From IMG/VR virus record IMGVR_UViG_3300032144_000385, positions 4,766-68,765 of that record: DNA of 64,000 nt; one strand, written 5' to 3'. The position numbers were made by a program, and so were the translations under genes. The notes under the pieces are model-generated. The model saw only the letters and a program-made list of their open reading frames with translations, was not told the origin of the DNA and searched no databases. Positions 4,594 through 63,722 of this stretch are shown here, piece by piece; position 1 is the stretch's first letter; each line of letters opens with the position of its first letter. Source of the DNA: a virus.

Positions 4594-4833
4594 CTAGTAG
4601 TCTCCGCTTGTAATGACCCGGAGGGTCGCCTCGATGTCGAGCTCGCGCCAGTCGCACAGGCCGAAGCGCTCCTCGATGCGGTAGTCGTCGGTCGTCGGGA
4701 AGTGCCCGAACCCGGCGCCGAATACCTCGCGCAGTCGGAACTTCCGGTCCGGGAAGGCGCGTCGAATCAGGTCGAGTTGCATCTGGCGGAGGTCCAGCTT
4801 GCTCTGGAGCGTCGGCTTGTAGATCGGTTCCAT
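4594..4833 (-). CDS. hypothetical protein, MEPIY family paralog 1
   Basis: MEPIY...RRAFPDRKFR; shares a 22-nt start sequence with 5322-5720. Confidence 0.7.
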   Translation of the reverse strand: MEPIYKPTLQSKLDLRQMQLDLIRRAFPDRKFRLREVFGAGFGHFPTTDDYRIEERFGLCDWRELDIEATLRVITSGDY

Positions 4834-57661: not shown

Positions 57662-57922
57662 TCAGTCCCCCTTCCCGGGCCGCGGACCTTCGGCATTGAG
57701 GAGCGCCTCGATCTCCGCGCGGTGCGGATGGTCGTGCGGGATCAGGAGCCGCATGTCGCGGTACCCCTCCCCGACGCGGCCCGTGCCCGCGCAGCGGTCG
57801 CACTGGGCGGGGCCATCGTACTCGGCATGCCCGCCGGGCACGTCGTGGGCCTCGTGCTTCGCGACGCGCTCGGCGTCGCGCCCGGAGCCCCCGCACTCGG
57901 GGCACTGCTCGTTTCGCTTCAT
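57662..57922 (-). CDS. small DnaJ-type Zn-finger protein
   Basis: CPECGGSG...CDRCAGTG; ATG at 57922. Confidence 0.65.
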   Translation of the reverse strand: MKRNEQCPECGGSGRDAERVAKHEAHDVPGGHAEYDGPAQCDRCAGTGRVGEGYRDMRLLIPHDHPHRAEIEALLNAEGPRPGKGD

Positions 57923-58140
57923 CCCTGCTCCTCCAGCTCCCTCTTTCGCTCCTCGTAGCCGGGGTCGCCCGGGTTGAGGACGCGCACTGTACCCGAGACG
58001 CGGACGCTTGGGCAGAGGACGTCCAGCGCGACGCGCGTGGCCCCGCCGCACACGTCGCAGGGGCCGACCTCGCTGGTGCCCGCCAGGACGTCGATGCGCC
58101 GGACGCGGCCGGAGCCGAGGCACCCGGGGCAGGTCTTCAC
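57919..58140 (-). CDS. small DnaJ-type Zn-finger protein
   Basis: CPGCLGSG...CDVCGG; GTG overlaps the portal stop. Confidence 0.65.
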   Translation of the reverse strand: MKTCPGCLGSGRVRRIDVLAGTSEVGPCDVCGGATRVALDVLCPSVRVSGTVRVLNPGDPGYEERKRELEEQG

Positions 58141-59576
58141 GCGGACGCCTCCTCGTCCTCGGGGGTCGCCTCCGCGGTCGCCTCGGCCGTCTCCGCCGCC
58201 ATCTCCGCGACCTCGGCCGCCTGGCGGCCGGGCAGGAGCCCGGCGTCGAGCGCCGAGGGCACCTCGACCGGGTGCTGGAGGCCGAGCAGGTCGCGGACCT
58301 GGTTCACCGCGGGGTCGTTCGGGAGCGTCATCGCGCCCGCCTGGCCCATCTTCGCGAGGGTGTCGGCCACCTCCTGCGCGCTGCGGTACTGCAGGCGGTC
58401 GGTCAGCATCTCGGGCATCGCCTCGAGCGGCCAGCCGTTCATCGCCCAGATCGGGCCGAGGTAGTCGCGCTGGAAGGCCTCGCGCAGCTCCTCGAGCGTG
58501 CCGTCGACCTGCACCGCGAAGTTGTGGTTCTTCTCCTTGGCGAGCGCGAAGCTGCCCGCGGCGCCGTCGCCGAGCAGGAGCTGCTCCACGCCGAGGACGC
58601 GCGCGATCTCGCGGTTCAGGCGCTCGATCGCGCGCAGCACCTCCGCGTGGGAGTTCGCGTCGCTGCGCAGGAGGTCGAGGCCCCACTTGTACGCCGACGA
58701 CGGGCGCCGGGTCTCGCGGTCCTCGTAGGTCATGCTGTCGAGCAGGACCGACATGTTCGGGGTCTTGACGTGGCCGCGCAGGAACGCGCGCATGCCCTGG
58801 AGCTCGGCGTCCACGTCGGCCTTGTTCTCGCGCATCTCCGCGATCGGCGCGCGGCCGACCGGGATCCCGCGGAGGTCGGTCTCGTAGCCCCAGCCCTCGA
58901 GCTGCTCGTAGCGGTTCAGGCGGCGCACGGACTCGGCGACGTGCCGGAAGAGGCCCATGCCCTCGGGCGAGTCGCTCACCGAGTCGTCGACGAGGTAGAC
59001 GAGCTTCCAGCGCGGGAGGAACACGCGCGCGCCGCTCATCGGGCTCTCCTGCCACGCGCCGTACACGCGGCCGCGCTCGTCGACGTCCCACTGGCGGATC
59101 GTCGACTGCGGGCGCACCGCGACGTCGGCCATGCCGATCGTGCCGTCGGCGCGCACGCCGGCGGTCCACTCCTGCAGGCTGAACCCGTAGAAGCGGTACA
59201 TCGCGGCGCGGCGGACGACGCGCTGCCACGAGGTGGCTCCGGCCGTCGGGCCGTACATCATCGCGTAGACGAGGTCGGTCAGGCGCTGCGAGTCGGGGTG
59301 GTCCGTCGGGTCGAGCGTCCACTGCGGGCGGCTGACCAGGTTCAGGAAGTAGCGCACCCCCGCGCTCACGATCGCCGTGTTCGCGAGCGCGTTCGAGAAG
59401 GTGACGTAGCGCTGGTCGCCCGCGAGCTCGGGCCGGCGCTCGACGACCTGGACGTACCCGCCGACGACGGCGGTGCCGCTGACGCCCTGCGGGGCGTCGG
59501 GCGGCAGGGCCTGCGGCCCGGGCGCGCGCGAGAGGTCCCGCGAGAGCCCGAGCTGCTTCAGGATGCGGTCGAGCAC
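58137..59576 (-). CDS. portal protein (Mu gp29/DUF935-like)
   Basis: 479 aa downstream of TerL; YGFSLQE, PEG.GLFR, G.P.G, IAR.LG...L.G..GS.AL. Confidence 0.88.
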   Translation of the reverse strand: MLDRILKQLGLSRDLSRAPGPQALPPDAPQGVSGTAVVGGYVQVVERRPELAGDQRYVTFSNALANTAIVSAGVRYFLNLVSRPQWTLDPTDHPDSQRLTDLVYAMMYGPTAGATSWQRVVRRAAMYRFYGFSLQEWTAGVRADGTIGMADVAVRPQSTIRQWDVDERGRVYGAWQESPMSGARVFLPRWKLVYLVDDSVSDSPEGMGLFRHVAESVRRLNRYEQLEGWGYETDLRGIPVGRAPIAEMRENKADVDAELQGMRAFLRGHVKTPNMSVLLDSMTYEDRETRRPSSAYKWGLDLLRSDANSHAEVLRAIERLNREIARVLGVEQLLLGDGAAGSFALAKEKNHNFAVQVDGTLEELREAFQRDYLGPIWAMNGWPLEAMPEMLTDRLQYRSAQEVADTLAKMGQAGAMTLPNDPAVNQVRDLLGLQHPVEVPSALDAGLLPGRQAAEVAEMAAETAEATAEATPEDEEASA

Positions 59577-59584
59577 CTAGGGTC

Positions 59585-60157
59585 TCAGGCCGAGGGCGAG
59601 GTCGTGTTGATAACGATCGTCGTCGCGCCCTCGGCGGACGAGGACGACACGTACCCGGAGGTCGCCACGGTCTCGGGCCGCGAGTGCATCGCGCCCATGG
59701 CGCGCAGCACGTCGCCGGCGGCCGTGTAGAGCTTGCCCTTGGACATGCTGCGGAACGCGGAGGCGTACAGCGAGCGCTTGCGCCGGCTCGAGAGCGCGGC
59801 GACCGCCTCGAGCGCGAGGGCGCCGAGGCCGTAGGGCAGGAGGCCGGCGAGCGGCTCCGCCTGGCGGCGCGCGGCGCGCTCCTCGAGGCCGGCGAGCGCC
59901 TCCTCCGCGCCCGCGAGGCGGCGGTTCGCGGCGGCGAGCGCCTCCGCGGCGGGGAGGTCGTCGGACGGGTCGGGGCTCTGGGCGGCGGACTCGACCTGGC
60001 CCTCCGCCGCGGAGACCGCGGCCTGGGCCGCCGCCTCCTCCGCGAGCTGGCGGTCGTACTCCGGCAGGGCCTCGGGCGTGCTGGACGCGACGGCCTGGCG
60101 GTCGACGGCGCATCCGGGGAGCAGGGCGAGGACGAGGGCGGCGATGAAGGGGCGCAT
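59585..60157 (-). CDS. predicted lipoprotein with coiled coil
   Basis: MRPFIAALVLALLPGC lipobox; heptad-rich middle. Confidence 0.7.
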   Translation of the reverse strand: MRPFIAALVLALLPGCAVDRQAVASSTPEALPEYDRQLAEEAAAQAAVSAAEGQVESAAQSPDPSDDLPAAEALAAANRRLAGAEEALAGLEERAARRQAEPLAGLLPYGLGALALEAVAALSSRRKRSLYASAFRSMSKGKLYTAAGDVLRAMGAMHSRPETVATSGYVSSSSAEGATTIVINTTSPSA

Positions 60158-60167
60158 GGCCCCCATG

Positions 60168-62723
60168 CTACTCCGGATCGTCCTGCTGGACAACCTCGGC
60201 CGCGGCCCCCGAGGAGGCGGTCGGCATGCGGACGAGCCGCGCGAAGGCGCGCGAGAGGGCGTCCACCTGGTCCTTGTACGTCCCGGCGGGGAACTGCCCG
60301 AGCTCGGCCAGGAGCTGGTCGGTCCATGGCGCCTCGACCACGCTGACGTTCCCGAGCTCCACCTGGGCGGCGAGCGGGCGCGCGCGGTCCTCCTTCGACC
60401 CCGTCTCCGGGCTGATCCGGACGTCGTACCCCGCCAGGAGCTCCGCGAAGTCCGCCTTCTGCGACAGGCCCGCCTGCCCGGGGTCCTGCGGCAGGTCGTG
60501 CACGGTCGAGCGCGGGTCCCCGTCCGCGGCCTCCCGCACCCGCATCCGCACCTCGCCCGGTCCCCAGCGCCCGCGGACGATGTCGGTGATCGTGTAGTGG
60601 TCCCGCCCGTCGCGCTTCCAGCGCGACATGCGCGCCCCCACCGTGTAGGCCGCGCGACCGTCCTTCGACGCCGCGAGGTCCCACGCCCGGCAGACCCGTC
60701 CCACCGGGACCTCCTCGGCCCGGACCCGGAGGATCTGGTCGCGCTTGAACATCCCCCCGCCGCGCGGCACCGGGCGCTGCTGCAGCTGGCTCGAGATCGC
60801 GTAGTCCCCGCCCCAGCTCGACAGCTCCTTCTCGAGCTCGTCGACCTGCGCGGGCGGGAACCGCTCCGGCCAGAAGAGCTCGCCCGGCTCCGTGCGCGGG
60901 TCCACGAACCCGAGGCTCGTCTTCGACGGGTAGGGGTGGTCGGGCTCGTGCCGCATCGGCAGGATCAGCCGGTCGTACGCGAGCCCGTGCTCGAGGATGT
61001 GGCCGGCGGGGTCCCGGTCGTGCAGGCGCTGCATGATCAGGATGATCGCGCTCGAGGCGTCGTTCGTGCGGCTCGGGATGACCTCGGTGAAGTACTGCAG
61101 GCAGATGTCGAGCGCCGCCTCGCTCGCGACCTCGCGCGCGTTCAGCAGGTCGTCCAGGATCACGCGGTCGCCGCGCTCGCCCGTGCCCGTGCCCTTGACC
61201 GAGCTCGCGAAGCGCCACCCGGTCGCGGAGTTCCCGAACTTCTCCTTGCCGAAGCTCTCGAGCTTCACGCGCTCGCCCCAGAGCTTCTGGTAGACCTCCG
61301 ACTGCACGAGGCGCAGGCACCGCCCGTTGTCTCGGATCGTCAGGTCCTCGGAGTACGCCGAACTCATGTACCGCATGTGCGGCAGGTTCCGCGGGCCCCA
61401 CTCCCACGCGGGCCAGAAGACGTTGCAGAGGAGAGAGTTGTGCACGGCCACGTCTCCGACGGTGAACGAGGCGTCCTCCTCGACCGTCAGGCACCGGCAC
61501 TCGCCCTCTCCGTCCAGCTCGACCGACTCGACCTCGTCCTCGTACAGAACGCGCTCGAAGATCGAGTCCGGGGCGGTATCCGCCGCTAGCCGCTTGCGGG
61601 CGCAGAGCCCGGGCAGCGCGGCGATCCTCCACAGGTCCGGGCTGCCGACGACGCTCACCGTCCAGGAGACGTAGAGGTCGCCCTGCTTCCGCGTTCTGAT
61701 CTTGCTGACCTTGCGCCGAACCGACGATCGGATCCCGAGCCGCAGCAGCGCGTGCTGCACGTCGTCGGCGAGGCGCTTGGAGACCGTCGTGCAGGAGCTT
61801 CGGTAGGCGGAGCCTCGCTGCCGCGTGTCGCGCACGTACACGTTTCCGTCGCTGGCCCAGTACGCTCCGAGAAAGTTCGAGAGCACCTCGCGCGACGACG
61901 CCAGCACTCGGTTCGGGATGAACTTGTCGTAGCTGTTTTTCCCTGTCAGCCCGAAGCTCTCGACCCAGCCGCGCGACCCCAGAACTCGGACGGTCCAGGA
62001 CGTTCGACCCGCGTACAGCGACTTGCTGGTCCGCAGGCCCACCGCCTCGCAGCACCGCTCGAAGTCAGCGATCACCTCGGGATCGGAGTTCGTGAACACG
62101 GTGGTCGCCGTGGTGAGCGACCCGTCGCCGACCAGGTAGCCGAGGACGCGCGCCTCCTCCACCGTGACGTCTCCCGACAGGTCCTCGTCCGGGCGAACCG
62201 CGGCCAGCGTGTCGCCCCGACGAAGCTCGTCGGCGCGGCGCCAGCCGCGCGGGGTCAGGTACGGATGATCCGCCGCGGCGCGGCTCACGCGACCGGCGAA
62301 CGTCTCTACCCGCAGAAGCGGGAGCACGCCCTGCTCGTGGACCGCGAGCACCCGTCGGTAGCGCCCGCGGTGCGTGAGCACCTCGTCGCCGACCGCGACC
62401 TCGCCGAGCGGGATCCGACCGCGCCGCGTGGCGACCAGGTTCCCCACCCACTCGGGCTTCATGCTCCCGGGCGGAATGTTGATCAGGAGCCGCCGGATCC
62501 GCCCGGCCGTGACCGCCTCGAGGTGGCTCGCGACCGCCTCGAGCGCCCAGCCGGTGACGAGCTTCCGACCCGGCTCGAGCACGGGCCACATGAGCTTGAC
62601 GAACTCGACGAGGCTGCGCTCCGCGCCGGCCTTCCGCAGGTGGAGCCGCGCCTCGTCGGGGTGCGCGGCGGCCCAGCGGGCGAGCGCCGCGAGGTCGGCG
62701 GGCGGGTTGGGCTTCGGGCTCAC
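60168..62723 (-). CDS. terL: terminase large subunit (intein-containing)
   Basis: LLINIPPGSMK|S Walker A split by the intein; G.RGDRVILDD; IMQRLH..D; AWDLA; DQVDA; GTG at 62723. Confidence 0.97.
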   Translation of the reverse strand: MSPKPNPPADLAALARWAAAHPDEARLHLRKAGAERSLVEFVKLMWPVLEPGRKLVTGWALEAVASHLEAVTAGRIRRLLINIPPGSMKPEWVGNLVATRRGRIPLGEVAVGDEVLTHRGRYRRVLAVHEQGVLPLLRVETFAGRVSRAAADHPYLTPRGWRRADELRRGDTLAAVRPDEDLSGDVTVEEARVLGYLVGDGSLTTATTVFTNSDPEVIADFERCCEAVGLRTSKSLYAGRTSWTVRVLGSRGWVESFGLTGKNSYDKFIPNRVLASSREVLSNFLGAYWASDGNVYVRDTRQRGSAYRSSCTTVSKRLADDVQHALLRLGIRSSVRRKVSKIRTRKQGDLYVSWTVSVVGSPDLWRIAALPGLCARKRLAADTAPDSIFERVLYEDEVESVELDGEGECRCLTVEEDASFTVGDVAVHNSLLCNVFWPAWEWGPRNLPHMRYMSSAYSEDLTIRDNGRCLRLVQSEVYQKLWGERVKLESFGKEKFGNSATGWRFASSVKGTGTGERGDRVILDDLLNAREVASEAALDICLQYFTEVIPSRTNDASSAIILIMQRLHDRDPAGHILEHGLAYDRLILPMRHEPDHPYPSKTSLGFVDPRTEPGELFWPERFPPAQVDELEKELSSWGGDYAISSQLQQRPVPRGGGMFKRDQILRVRAEEVPVGRVCRAWDLAASKDGRAAYTVGARMSRWKRDGRDHYTITDIVRGRWGPGEVRMRVREAADGDPRSTVHDLPQDPGQAGLSQKADFAELLAGYDVRISPETGSKEDRARPLAAQVELGNVSVVEAPWTDQLLAELGQFPAGTYKDQVDALSRAFARLVRMPTASSGAAAEVVQQDDPE
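61437..62456 (-). mobile_element. 340-aa intein with LAGLIDADG homing endonuclease; Pro1, class-3-like
   Basis: Block A PEWVGNLVATRRG, block B AAADHPYL, endonuclease blocks LGYLVGDG and LGAYWASDG, block F CRCLTVEE..SF, block G VAVHN/S. Confidence 0.93.
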
Positions 62724-62872
62724 GCCGGCGCCGGCAGCGGCCGGCACGAGAGGACGCGCTCGAGGCCGCAGAGCGCCATCGCCTCCGCGCACGCCTCGTC
62801 GGGGTCGGCGGTCCGGCGCCAGGCGAGAACCGAGCGTCCGCCGCGGAGGCCGTGGATGAGCCAGACGATCAC
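62720..62872 (-). CDS. hypothetical protein
   Basis: MIVWLIHGLRGG...; GTGA overlaps. Confidence 0.45.
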   Translation of the reverse strand: MIVWLIHGLRGGRSVLAWRRTADPDEACAEAMALCGLERVLSCRPLPAPA

Positions 62873-63159
62873 TGTCGGGACCCCGGGCCGCGGAGCAGGG
62901 CGCCGCGCGGGGCGGCGTCGGCGATCGTCGCGCGCACGACCGCCTCGGGGTCGGGGCCCGCCGCCGCGCAGCGCGGCCGGGCGGGGTCCCACACGAATCC
63001 GATGAAGCACGCCGGGGCGATCCCCGCCTCGACGGCCACGAACGACACGGGGTGGTGGTTCGCCGGGAACGCGCGGGTGGTCGGGCCCTCCTGGTTCCAT
63101 CTGGTGTCGCCCGGCACGGCGAGTAGCAGGGCGTCGCGGAGTCGCTCGGAGGCCGTCAC
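62869..63159 (-). CDS. hypothetical protein
   Basis: Track ORF, coupled. Confidence 0.55.
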   Translation of the reverse strand: MTASERLRDALLLAVPGDTRWNQEGPTTRAFPANHHPVSFVAVEAGIAPACFIGFVWDPARPRCAAAGPDPEAVVRATIADAAPRGALLRGPGSRQ

Positions 63160-63722
63160 GGGGCGGGCTCCTCGGGGTCGGGCGCGATCTCGCGCGGGGG
63201 CTGGGGCGCGTCGCCCGCGGCGGGCGGGCTGGTCGGCGGCGCCAGGTGCAGGGACTCCACGAAGGCGTCGAAGCGGCGGCGCTGCTCGGGGAGCAGGTTG
63301 TCGATGGCCGCCGCGGTCGGGGCGTCGCGGCGCTCGGTGACCGAGTGCGGGCGGAAGCGCGGGTCGAGGACCTCGAGCAGGCGCAGCATGAGCCCGTCGG
63401 AGTAGACCCGCTCGACGACGGGCTTACCTTCCTCGTCCAGGACCTGCTTCCCCTGGTAGTAGACGCCCTTCTCGGCCCCCTCCACCGCGCGGCGCGCGGC
63501 CTCGGGGATCAGGACGGAGTCCTTCCAGTTCGTGACGGCGAGCTCGAGCGCCTCCGAGAACGAGGGGTCGCGGGCGGCGGCGGCGCGGATCGCCGACAGG
63601 GTCGTCCCCGCGGCGCGCGCGGCCTTGCCGAGGTCGCCGGTCGTCTCGAGCACCTCGCACACCAGGGCCTGGACGGCGGGCACGAGATCGAGTGATCGGC
63701 GGGGCTCCGGCGCGCGGCTCAA
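63156..63722 (-). CDS. terS: terminase small subunit
   Basis: HTH N-terminus; EA.RRAVEG.EKGVYYQG...YSD.LM..LL....P..; upstream of TerL. Confidence 0.8.
   Translation of the reverse strand: MSRAPEPRRSLDLVPAVQALVCEVLETTGDLGKAARAAGTTLSAIRAAAARDPSFSEALELAVTNWKDSVLIPEAARRAVEGAEKGVYYQGKQVLDEEGKPVVERVYSDGLMLRLLEVLDPRFRPHSVTERRDAPTAAAIDNLLPEQRRRFDAFVESLHLAPPTSPPAAGDAPQPPREIAPDPEEPAP

Follow-up and report, generated by a model that had tools for sequence, protein, structure and literature searches.

A phiCbK-type intein in the Walker A motif of a viral terminase and the family to which it belongs

An intein in the Walker A motif of TerL

The gene for the terminase large subunit (TerL) in a 64,000-nucleotide stretch of viral DNA (positions 4,766 to 68,765 of IMG/VR record IMGVR_UViG_3300032144_000385; hereafter the window) is interrupted by an intein of 340 amino acids. 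Homology, an AlphaFold2 model and Foldseek matches identify the product of positions 61437–62456, minus strand, as a HINT splicing domain split by a LAGLIDADG homing endonuclease. An earlier sequence-only reading had presented this intein as an oddity; it belongs instead, as an unremarkable member, to a large and little-studied family with a common signature, which includes the TerL intein of phage phiCbK. The kind is known, from the phiCbK annotation (2012) and from a census in which it appears as 'FCV' (2020), but is uncharacterised, and the window copy is a new member of it. We put at about 0.7 the probability that the element is functional and mobile, is of the phiCbK type, and splices by class-3-type chemistry through the cysteine at position 4 of block F (Cys-F4), a judgment drawn from sequence comparison.

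The boundaries of the intein are exact, because seven close TerL homologues without the insert (505–513 amino acids; C-extein identity 60–67%) read through the junction without a gap, with PPGxxK-S contiguous. The insert corresponds to residues 113–452 of the TerL open reading frame (ORF) and lies between the Lys and the Ser of the Walker A motif (PPGSMK/S, the slash marking the insertion point). Over the fused junction, the closest empty allele is identical to the window at 40 of 60 nucleotides. The N-extein (62457–62792, minus strand, as are all features of the precursor given below) ends in the first half of Walker A (INIPPGSMK), as judged from the translation and the intein-less homologues, and its last residue is Lys-1 (Lys112; 62457–62459). 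The C-extein (60168–61436), recognized from profile matches and homologues, supplies the remainder of the ATPase domain and the RNaseH-like nuclease domain, and begins with Ser+1 (61434–61436), which is the Ser/Thr residue of Walker A as well as the C-extein nucleophile.

Translation confirmed every residue and coordinate that the sequence-only reading had assigned to the intein. Numbered from its own first residue, the intein begins at block A position 1 with Pro1 (62454–62456) and thus has no N-terminal nucleophile. The block B core, AADHPY (62259–62276), provides Ala-B7, His64 at B10 and Tyr66 at B12. Block F opens with CRCLTV (61482–61499), in which Cys320 (61497–61499) occupies F2 and Cys322 (61491–61493), the proposed branch-point nucleophile, occupies F4. 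A phmmer comparison with the PDB aligned the query 'ecrcLTV...asf...vHN' with 'evfDLTV...hnf...vHN' of the Npu DnaB mini-intein 4o1r, and Cys322 is placed at F4 because this alignment sets it on the Asp-F4 of 4o1r. CRCLTV is followed by EEDASF, so that Ala stands at the position of the block F His. Block G ends in VHN (61437–61445), with Val338 at G5, His339 at G6 and Asn340 at G7. Blocks A, B, F and G are therefore all recognizable, together with His-B10, the C-terminal His-Asn and a +1 nucleophile, and the claimed absence of Trp-B12 and Thr-G5 was borne out (Tyr66 and Val338, respectively).

Both motifs of the endonuclease, LGYLVGDG (62121–62144) and LGAYWASDG (61845–61871), keep the catalytic Asp. 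In a 49-sequence alignment, the GDG of the first motif is at least 90% conserved, and the invariant columns include the Asp-Gly of the second, along with His-B10, Cys-F2, Cys-F4, Val-G5 and Asn-G7. The insert matched LAGLIDADG_3 (PF14528; 7.6e-18), intein-bearing NCBIfam models, and solved DnaB and RecA inteins. An AlphaFold2 model of the intein, with an alignment of relatives as input, reached a predicted local distance difference test (pLDDT) score of 95.2 and a predicted template modelling (pTM) score of 0.93, and has CRCLTV in a beta strand. The best Foldseek matches of this model were the full-length, endonuclease-bearing inteins TliVMA (1.4e-20) and PI-SceI; the DnaB and MchDnaB1 mini-inteins were also matched, over the splicing domain, so that the model has the HINT fold. 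Translation, alignment and empty-site homologues together uphold the earlier identification of a genuine intein that combines Cys-F4 and Ser+1 with an intact two-motif LAGLIDADG endonuclease.

The splicing domain itself is poorly served by general profiles. Pfam Intein_splicing scored 24–28 bits (cut-off 35.8), Hint_2 was also under its cut-off (28.4), and a genome search with Pfam PF14890 returned no loci, the window's own intein being among those missed. Because the Pfam splicing models are sub-threshold, routine annotation of such inteins yields only a LAGLIDADG domain in an over-long terminase. Family-wide conservation of the Asp residues of the endonuclease, and the patchy occurrence of the intein among close TerL relatives, are what an active homing element would show. 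Recent acquisition from a compositionally different donor was considered and rejected, as the G+C fraction at third codon positions is 0.90 in the intein and 0.91–0.98 in the exteins.

The xCV family and its relation to the intein classes

When 1.84 billion protein cluster representatives were scanned with HMMER, 223 proteins were recovered at E <= 1e-30, the top relatives being 45–54% identical to the window intein. Key positions were mapped on the best 150 of these 223, and 135 of the 150 share the design of the window intein. We refer to this group as xCV, for the residues at B12, F4 and G5, and to the canonical class 3 combination (Trp-B12, Cys-F4 and Thr-G5) as WCT; Val-G5 was the defining criterion of the group, hence its occurrence in 135/135. 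The family signature comprises Pro1, AxxHx[FYVMLI], CxC at F2/F4, Val-G5, HN and Ser/Thr+1. His-B10 and Cys-F4 are present in all 135 representatives, and Asn-G7 is present in 134/135. F2 is Cys in 132/135 and Met in 3/135, position 1 is Pro in 125/135, and B7 is Ala in 120/135. B12 is most often Phe (98), followed by Val (16), Tyr (7), Met (6), Leu (4) and Ile (4), and is Trp in none of the 135. His (119/135) or Lys (10/135) is usual at G6, the +1 residue is Ser (106), Thr (26) or Cys (3), and the block F position holds His in 69/135 and Ala, as in the window, in 13/135. Because 135 representatives share this design, the residues of the window intein that had seemed odd are the family norm. 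The possibility that Pro1 is a sequencing error is excluded by its prevalence in the family, and the extra cysteine two residues upstream of F4 proved to be a real and recurrent feature.

Insertion sites could be mapped cleanly for 126 members. Most (104/126) lie at the Walker A ..K/S or K/T junction of terminases; another 9/126 lie three residues upstream (PPG/xxKS), bringing the terminase P-loop total to 113/126, and four occupy the nuclease-domain motif EQEPG/SGGKE. A few are found elsewhere, including two representatives at QDPGQAGK/SQ, a motif that is also present in the window TerL. Proteins with an intein at this upstream P-loop site (PPG/xMKS) include P0003, P0005, P0007–P0010, P0020, P0021, P0024 and P0198.

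Few Cys-F4 relatives fall outside the 135-member group, and these carry Ile, Cys or Ala at G5. The sole sampled family member with Thr at G5 is P0198, a TerL homologue from a separate homologue search, whose intein is nested in the xCV family and also has Val-F2, a Ser-Asn end and Cys+1. It may represent a natural swap of F2-Cys for G5-Thr, a single suggestive case that carries no statistical weight.

The phiCbK TerL intein (CbK_gp318) was placed by Gill et al. (2012; PMC3556154) at P131–N471, between K130 and S472, with a class 3 paper cited for the Pro start, and is annotated as a mat_peptide 'intein' in JX100813. That account notes the Pro start alone; the missing Trp and Thr and the CxC go undiscussed. 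Translation of the phiCbK locus gives Pro1, AASDHAF, CRCLTV and VHN/S, which is the xCV signature, and TerL inteins of phiCbK-like Caulobacter and Brevundimonas phages are the nearest to the window intein among cultured phages (27–31% identity). The window intein has the residues of this family and falls in the same clan of the splicing-domain tree described below. Table S1 of Hoffmann et al. (2020; PMC7891396) lists 1702 nr inteins, with 1685 WCT, 7 FCV, 1 MCT and a few others; the FCV row goes undiscussed and YCV is unlisted. By its residues at these positions, the xCV family corresponds to that FCV row. We found no experiment on the family and no description of its shared features in the searchable literature, and nothing on 'class 4' or 'class 3-like' inteins, or on WCT variants in terminases, beyond the papers cited here.

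How the window intein is classed depends on the definition used. Hoffmann et al. (2020) define class 3 operationally by the lack of Cys at position 1 and the presence of Cys at C2:4, and the intein has both features. Of the class 3 signature given by Tori et al. (2010; PMC2807308), it has a first residue other than Cys, Ser or Thr, Cys-F4, and Ser/Thr+1 (usual, not absolute), but it lacks Trp-B12 and Thr-G5 and lies outside the WCT clade. Pro1, on the other hand, which the sequence-only reading took to be atypical for class 3, also opens the class 3 prototype, the 341-amino-acid DnaB intein of mycobacteriophage Bethlehem (MP-Be; PMC2807308). Class 2 inteins, the orthologues of Mja KlbA, have Ala1, Cys+1, Asp-F4 and Ser-G6 (PMC4031507), and the window intein, with Pro1, Ser+1, Cys-F4 and His-G6, is not of this type.

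For comparison, canonical WCT inteins were sampled from phages that included crAss-like cr111_1, DAC17, Salmonella SPLA5c, Klebsiella Miami, Vibrio 1.161.O, EC001, RTH11, Phrappuccino and Stx phage 24B. These inteins have 'HLW', Cys-F4 and 'THN', with Ala, Thr or Val as the usual F2 residue. F2 is Cys in 2 of the 11 sampled, namely those of the Stx2 phage 24B protein P (CLCIMV) and of the crAss-like cr111_1 TerL (CKCVTV), so the CxC recurs outside the xCV family.

A careful IQ-TREE search over 137 splicing-domain columns and 83 rows, in which class 1 was sampled by 10 rows, gave an unrooted tree with three separate clans: (i) the WCT inteins plus one 'YCT' intein (support 100/94); (ii) the 10 class 1 rows plus P0114 (99/84); and (iii) the xCV family, including the window intein, phiCbK and Marchewka, with Mesorhizobium phage Cp1R7A-A1 basal (98/90). 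P0114, a metagenomic protein of 2025 amino acids with an intein at about 990–1350, groups with class 1 in the tree yet carries both possible first nucleophiles, an apparent Cys1 (CLSGDT) and Cys-F4, as well as THN and Cys+1. A quick tree had nested class 1 (DnaB type) in an xCV polytomy, which suggested an origin independent of class 3; this was dropped when the careful search, with nine curated class 1 and WCT rows added, resolved the three clans. The divergent class 3 lineage that had been suggested is consistent with a supported xCV clan apart from the WCT clan. The tree separates xCV from both classes, although, being unrooted, it neither shows nor excludes a sister relation between xCV and WCT. 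Cys-F4 could have had one origin, with xCV and WCT as sisters, if the root lies in class 1; otherwise xCV is possibly an independent invention.

Profile comparisons place the family between class 1 and WCT class 3. The hhalign scores were 196.9 for xCV and class 1, 155.4 for xCV and WCT, and 128.8 for WCT and class 1; against solved inteins, the xCV profile matched class 1 DnaB at 2.6e-14 and RecA at 1e-10, but class 3 MchDnaB1 at only 4e-3. The idea of a mechanistic intermediate therefore holds as a statement about sequence space and goes no further, given the unrooted tree. In its blocks, xCV resembles a DnaB/RecA-type class 1 intein altered at four positions of the catalytic site, with Pro in place of Cys1, Ala in place of Thr-B7, Cys at F2, and Cys in place of Asp-F4. 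A tentative extension, to which we give perhaps one chance in four, is that xCV is an ancient lineage of its own which performs class-3-type chemistry on an essentially class 1 scaffold with about four catalytic-site changes, either as a surviving link between class 1 and WCT or as a second, independent invention of the block F nucleophile, with the second cysteine at work as a relay or as a substitute for Thr-G5. Such a history would bear on the published view that class 3 is monophyletic and that its WCT context is obligatory, as well as on the proposal that a few mutations cannot lead from class 1 to class 3 (PMC7664689).

Probable splicing route and possible roles of the second cysteine

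Splicing by the class 3 route, started by Cys-F4, is the most likely course for the window intein, judging from its residues. Modelled on other inteins (PMC2807308, PMC5222942, PMC6195587, PMC7664689, PMC7891396), the thiol of Cys322, assisted by His64, would attack the Lys112-Pro1 bond and form a block F branched thioester; the N-extein would then pass to Ser+1, giving a block G branched ester; cyclisation of Asn340, helped by His339, would release the intein; and an O-to-N shift would rebuild PPGSMK-S. With the insertion inside Walker A, the TerL precursor presumably cannot bind ATP before the intein has left. The endonuclease of the freed intein would cut the intein-less terL of co-infecting relatives and then home into it.

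Several observations favour this route. The pairing of Ser/Thr+1 with Cys-F4 is that of class 3 (PMC2807308, PMC5222942), and with Ser at +1 a direct class 2 attack on the amide is unlikely. Trp-B12 is not essential for class 3 chemistry, since the AceL NrdHF intein, whose class 3 mechanism is proven, has Met at that position (PMC7891396). Loss of Thr-G5 merely slows splicing (PMC7891396, PMC5222942), at a roughly tenfold cost in rate in AceL NrdHF. Plaque-forming phiCbK-like phages of Caulobacter and Brevundimonas carry the xCV signature in the Walker A motif of TerL (PMC3556154), and because these viable phages have the design in an essential packaging gene, the family should, by analogy, splice in vivo.

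Other points weigh against the class 3 assignment. Cys322 is a putative branch point, placed there by sequence alone, and two of the three class 3 signature residues, Trp-B12 and Thr-G5, are missing. In the MP-Be DnaB intein, a Trp-to-Tyr change abolished splicing at 30 C, with rescue at 15 C (PMC2807308), and Thr-G5 belongs to a proposed Cys-His-Thr triad (PMC7664689). The xCV family lies outside the canonical class 3 clan of the unrooted tree, and, because its profile is closer to class 1 than to solved class 3 inteins, the mechanism cannot be transferred by mere homology. Finally, the block F His, a helper of Asn cyclisation, is lost in the window intein and is retained in only about half of its relatives (69/135).

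The near-invariance of the CxC in the family (132/135) indicates that it is probably functional. Cys-F2, on the same strand and two residues before F4, may stand in for Thr-G5 by tuning or positioning the F4 thiol or His-B10, serve as a relay or a reserve thiol, or pair in a reversible disulfide. Natural variants with Met or Thr at F2, which keep Cys-F4, show that Cys-F2 is not strictly necessary.

The alternative that fares best holds that Cys320 is catalytic too, either as first nucleophile or as a relay that takes the N-extein from Cys322 or hands it on, which would set these inteins apart as a mechanistic sub-class rather than as class 3 inteins with a passenger cysteine. We consider it improbable, though it has points in its favour: Cys at F2 is far more frequent in xCV representatives than in the sampled WCT inteins (132/135 versus 2/11); F2 and F4 are two residues apart on one beta strand of the model, where their side chains should point to one side; and P0198, which pairs Thr-G5 with Val-F2, hints that F2-Cys and G5-Thr may be alternatives. 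Against it, the three representatives with Met at F2 and Cp1R7A-A1 with Thr all keep Cys at F4, so that F2-Cys is dispensable in some natural members.

Slightly less probable still is the redox control that the sequence-only reading had in mind for the CxC. As an addition to the class 3 route, a Cys320-Cys322 disulfide might block the nucleophile and pause TerL maturation and packaging until conditions become reducing. Conservation of the CxC is compatible with this, and there is a sole precedent, the reversible disulfide between the catalytic Cys118 and Cys48 of Msm DnaBi1, whose splicing is inhibited in vivo by H2O2 (PMC6195587). Against it, a disulfide that joins positions i and i+2 within a beta strand is under strain, stalling its own packaging brings a lytic phage no obvious gain, and a catalytic or structural role explains the conservation equally well.

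In a class-2-like route, Ser+1 would attack the Lys-Pro bond directly and Cys322 would occupy the structural or activating place of Asp-F4. The class-1-like scaffold (VHN end, HPF-type block B, and a profile nearest to DnaB and RecA inteins) could accommodate this, and F4 is a non-nucleophilic helper in inteins of classes 1 and 2. We think it very unlikely, though: all known class 2 inteins have Cys+1, Ala1, Asp-F4 and Ser-G6 (PMC4031507), the +1 residue of xCV inteins is Ser or Thr in 132/135, attack of a hydroxyl on an unactivated amide is chemically unfavourable, and the absolute invariance of Cys-F4 is what a nucleophile would show. That the intein is a dead element which no longer splices, with TerL a pseudogene in a defective or mis-assembled genome, has least to recommend it; the sub-threshold Pfam splicing score and the lost block F His would fit, but the 874-codon frame is open with every family-invariant residue in place, the record is rated 100% complete and offers no other TerL in the part of the window examined, Ala replaces the block F His in other relatives too, and viable phiCbK-like phages share the same intein design.

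Genome setting and comparison with known inteins

The record that contains the window is an IMG/VR virus genome of 70,718 bp with a CheckV completeness of 100%; the window covers most of it and has a base composition of 73% G+C. The TerL precursor ORF (P0153; translation and profile matches) extends over 60168–62792, minus strand, including the stop codon. Its start is ambiguous (62745–62792): the longest ORF begins at GTG 62792 (874 amino acids) and the database gene call at GTG 62747 (859 amino acids). The host protein is a Terminase_6-type TerL (Terminase_6C, 1.5e-08; phrog_38, 1.5e-62) with an N-terminal P-loop ATPase and a C-terminal RNaseH-like nuclease. On the same strand, the gene for the small terminase subunit lies upstream (63156–63722; phrog_4044, 1.6e-22) and the portal gene downstream (58137–59576; phrog_113, 4.4e-49). 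No second terminase large subunit, other than the intein-interrupted gene, was seen in the examined part of the window. The best cultured relatives of the TerL are from phages of Shewanella, Rhizobium, Paracoccus and Erythrobacter (37–44% identity). The terminase-portal region (57919–62055 and its neighbours) also contains very long overlapping or out-of-frame ORFs, for example one of 1378 amino acids on the minus strand; their Arg/Pro/Gly/Ala-rich translations are an artefact usual at a G+C content of 73% and do not point to genes.

For this phage, the intein is ordinary selfish DNA: TerL would have to splice before packaging, and the endonuclease would let the intein pass between related phages. 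It is the family that has the wider value: it offers hundreds of diverged sequences, some of them in culturable phiCbK-like phages, and its members appear to splice by a block F cysteine while lacking the Trp and Thr regarded in the literature as the hallmark of class 3. Its class-1-like scaffold makes it a test bed for (i) how class 3 splicing arose, (ii) which residues it needs, and (iii) whether a CxC can act as a switch, and it may yield new traceless or conditional splicing tools.

Within the xCV family, the intein of phiCbK is the best known. It shares with the window intein the Walker A Lys/Ser site, a length of about 341 amino acids, the LAGLIDADG endonuclease, Pro1, Ala-B7, His-B10, a non-Trp aromatic residue at B12, an identical CRCLTV with both cysteines, VHN/S, and its clan in the tree. 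It differs in overall sequence (about 27% identity over the intein by tblastn), in having Phe rather than Tyr at B12, and in keeping the block F His, and the N-terminal part of phiCbK's TerL differs from that of the window TerL. By alignment to PPGHAK/.../S, the intein in the TerL of Mesorhizobium phage Cp1R7A-A1 (MT188704) starts with Asp-Met-Cys and has Thr-F2; the record carries no intein annotation.

The MP-Be DnaB prototype resembles the window intein in Pro1, in its length of 341 amino acids, in Cys-F4, His-B10, the HN end and Thr/Ser+1, and in its phage origin, but has the Trp-B12 and Thr-G5 of WCT inteins; canonical WCT inteins are 23–25% identical to the window intein and form a separate clan. 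AceL NrdHF (PDB 6ZGQ; PMC7891396) is alike in doing without Trp-B12, yet it occurs naturally as a split intein that retains Thr-G5, has neither of the two helper His residues and carries no endonuclease; the xCV family profile did not pick it up at E <= 0.01. In Msm DnaBi1 (PDB 6BS8; Kelley et al. 2018, PMC6195587), a second cysteine of the intein can trap the F4 Cys, but that cysteine, Cys48, lies outside the splicing blocks at a distance of 11–12 A, and the protein is a WCT mini-intein of a bacterial helicase. The class 1 Npu and Ssp DnaB mini-inteins (4O1R, 1MI8) and Mtu RecA (2IMZ) share the HPF-type block B, xLTVxxxHxF and the VHN end with xCV; at the positions where xCV has Pro1, Ala-B7, Cys-F2 and Cys-F4, they carry Cys1, Thr-B7, a hydrophobic residue and Asp-F4, respectively.

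TerL genes carry other inteins as well. Those of mycobacteriophages have been described (Kelley et al. 2016, PMC5050341), and in the TerL homologues P0165, P0204 and P0225 a further, unrelated intein, with an apparent start CTPAES and end SSN/C, occupies another TerL site. Two metagenomic proteins of the same TerL family as that of the window, P0238 and P0262, have WCT inteins at the very same K/S junction; with Ala1, GHLW, VSCIQ and PTHN/S, these differ from the window intein and belong to a different lineage. As WCT and xCV inteins both occupy the Walker A K/S junction of one TerL family, the two lineages compete for a single site.

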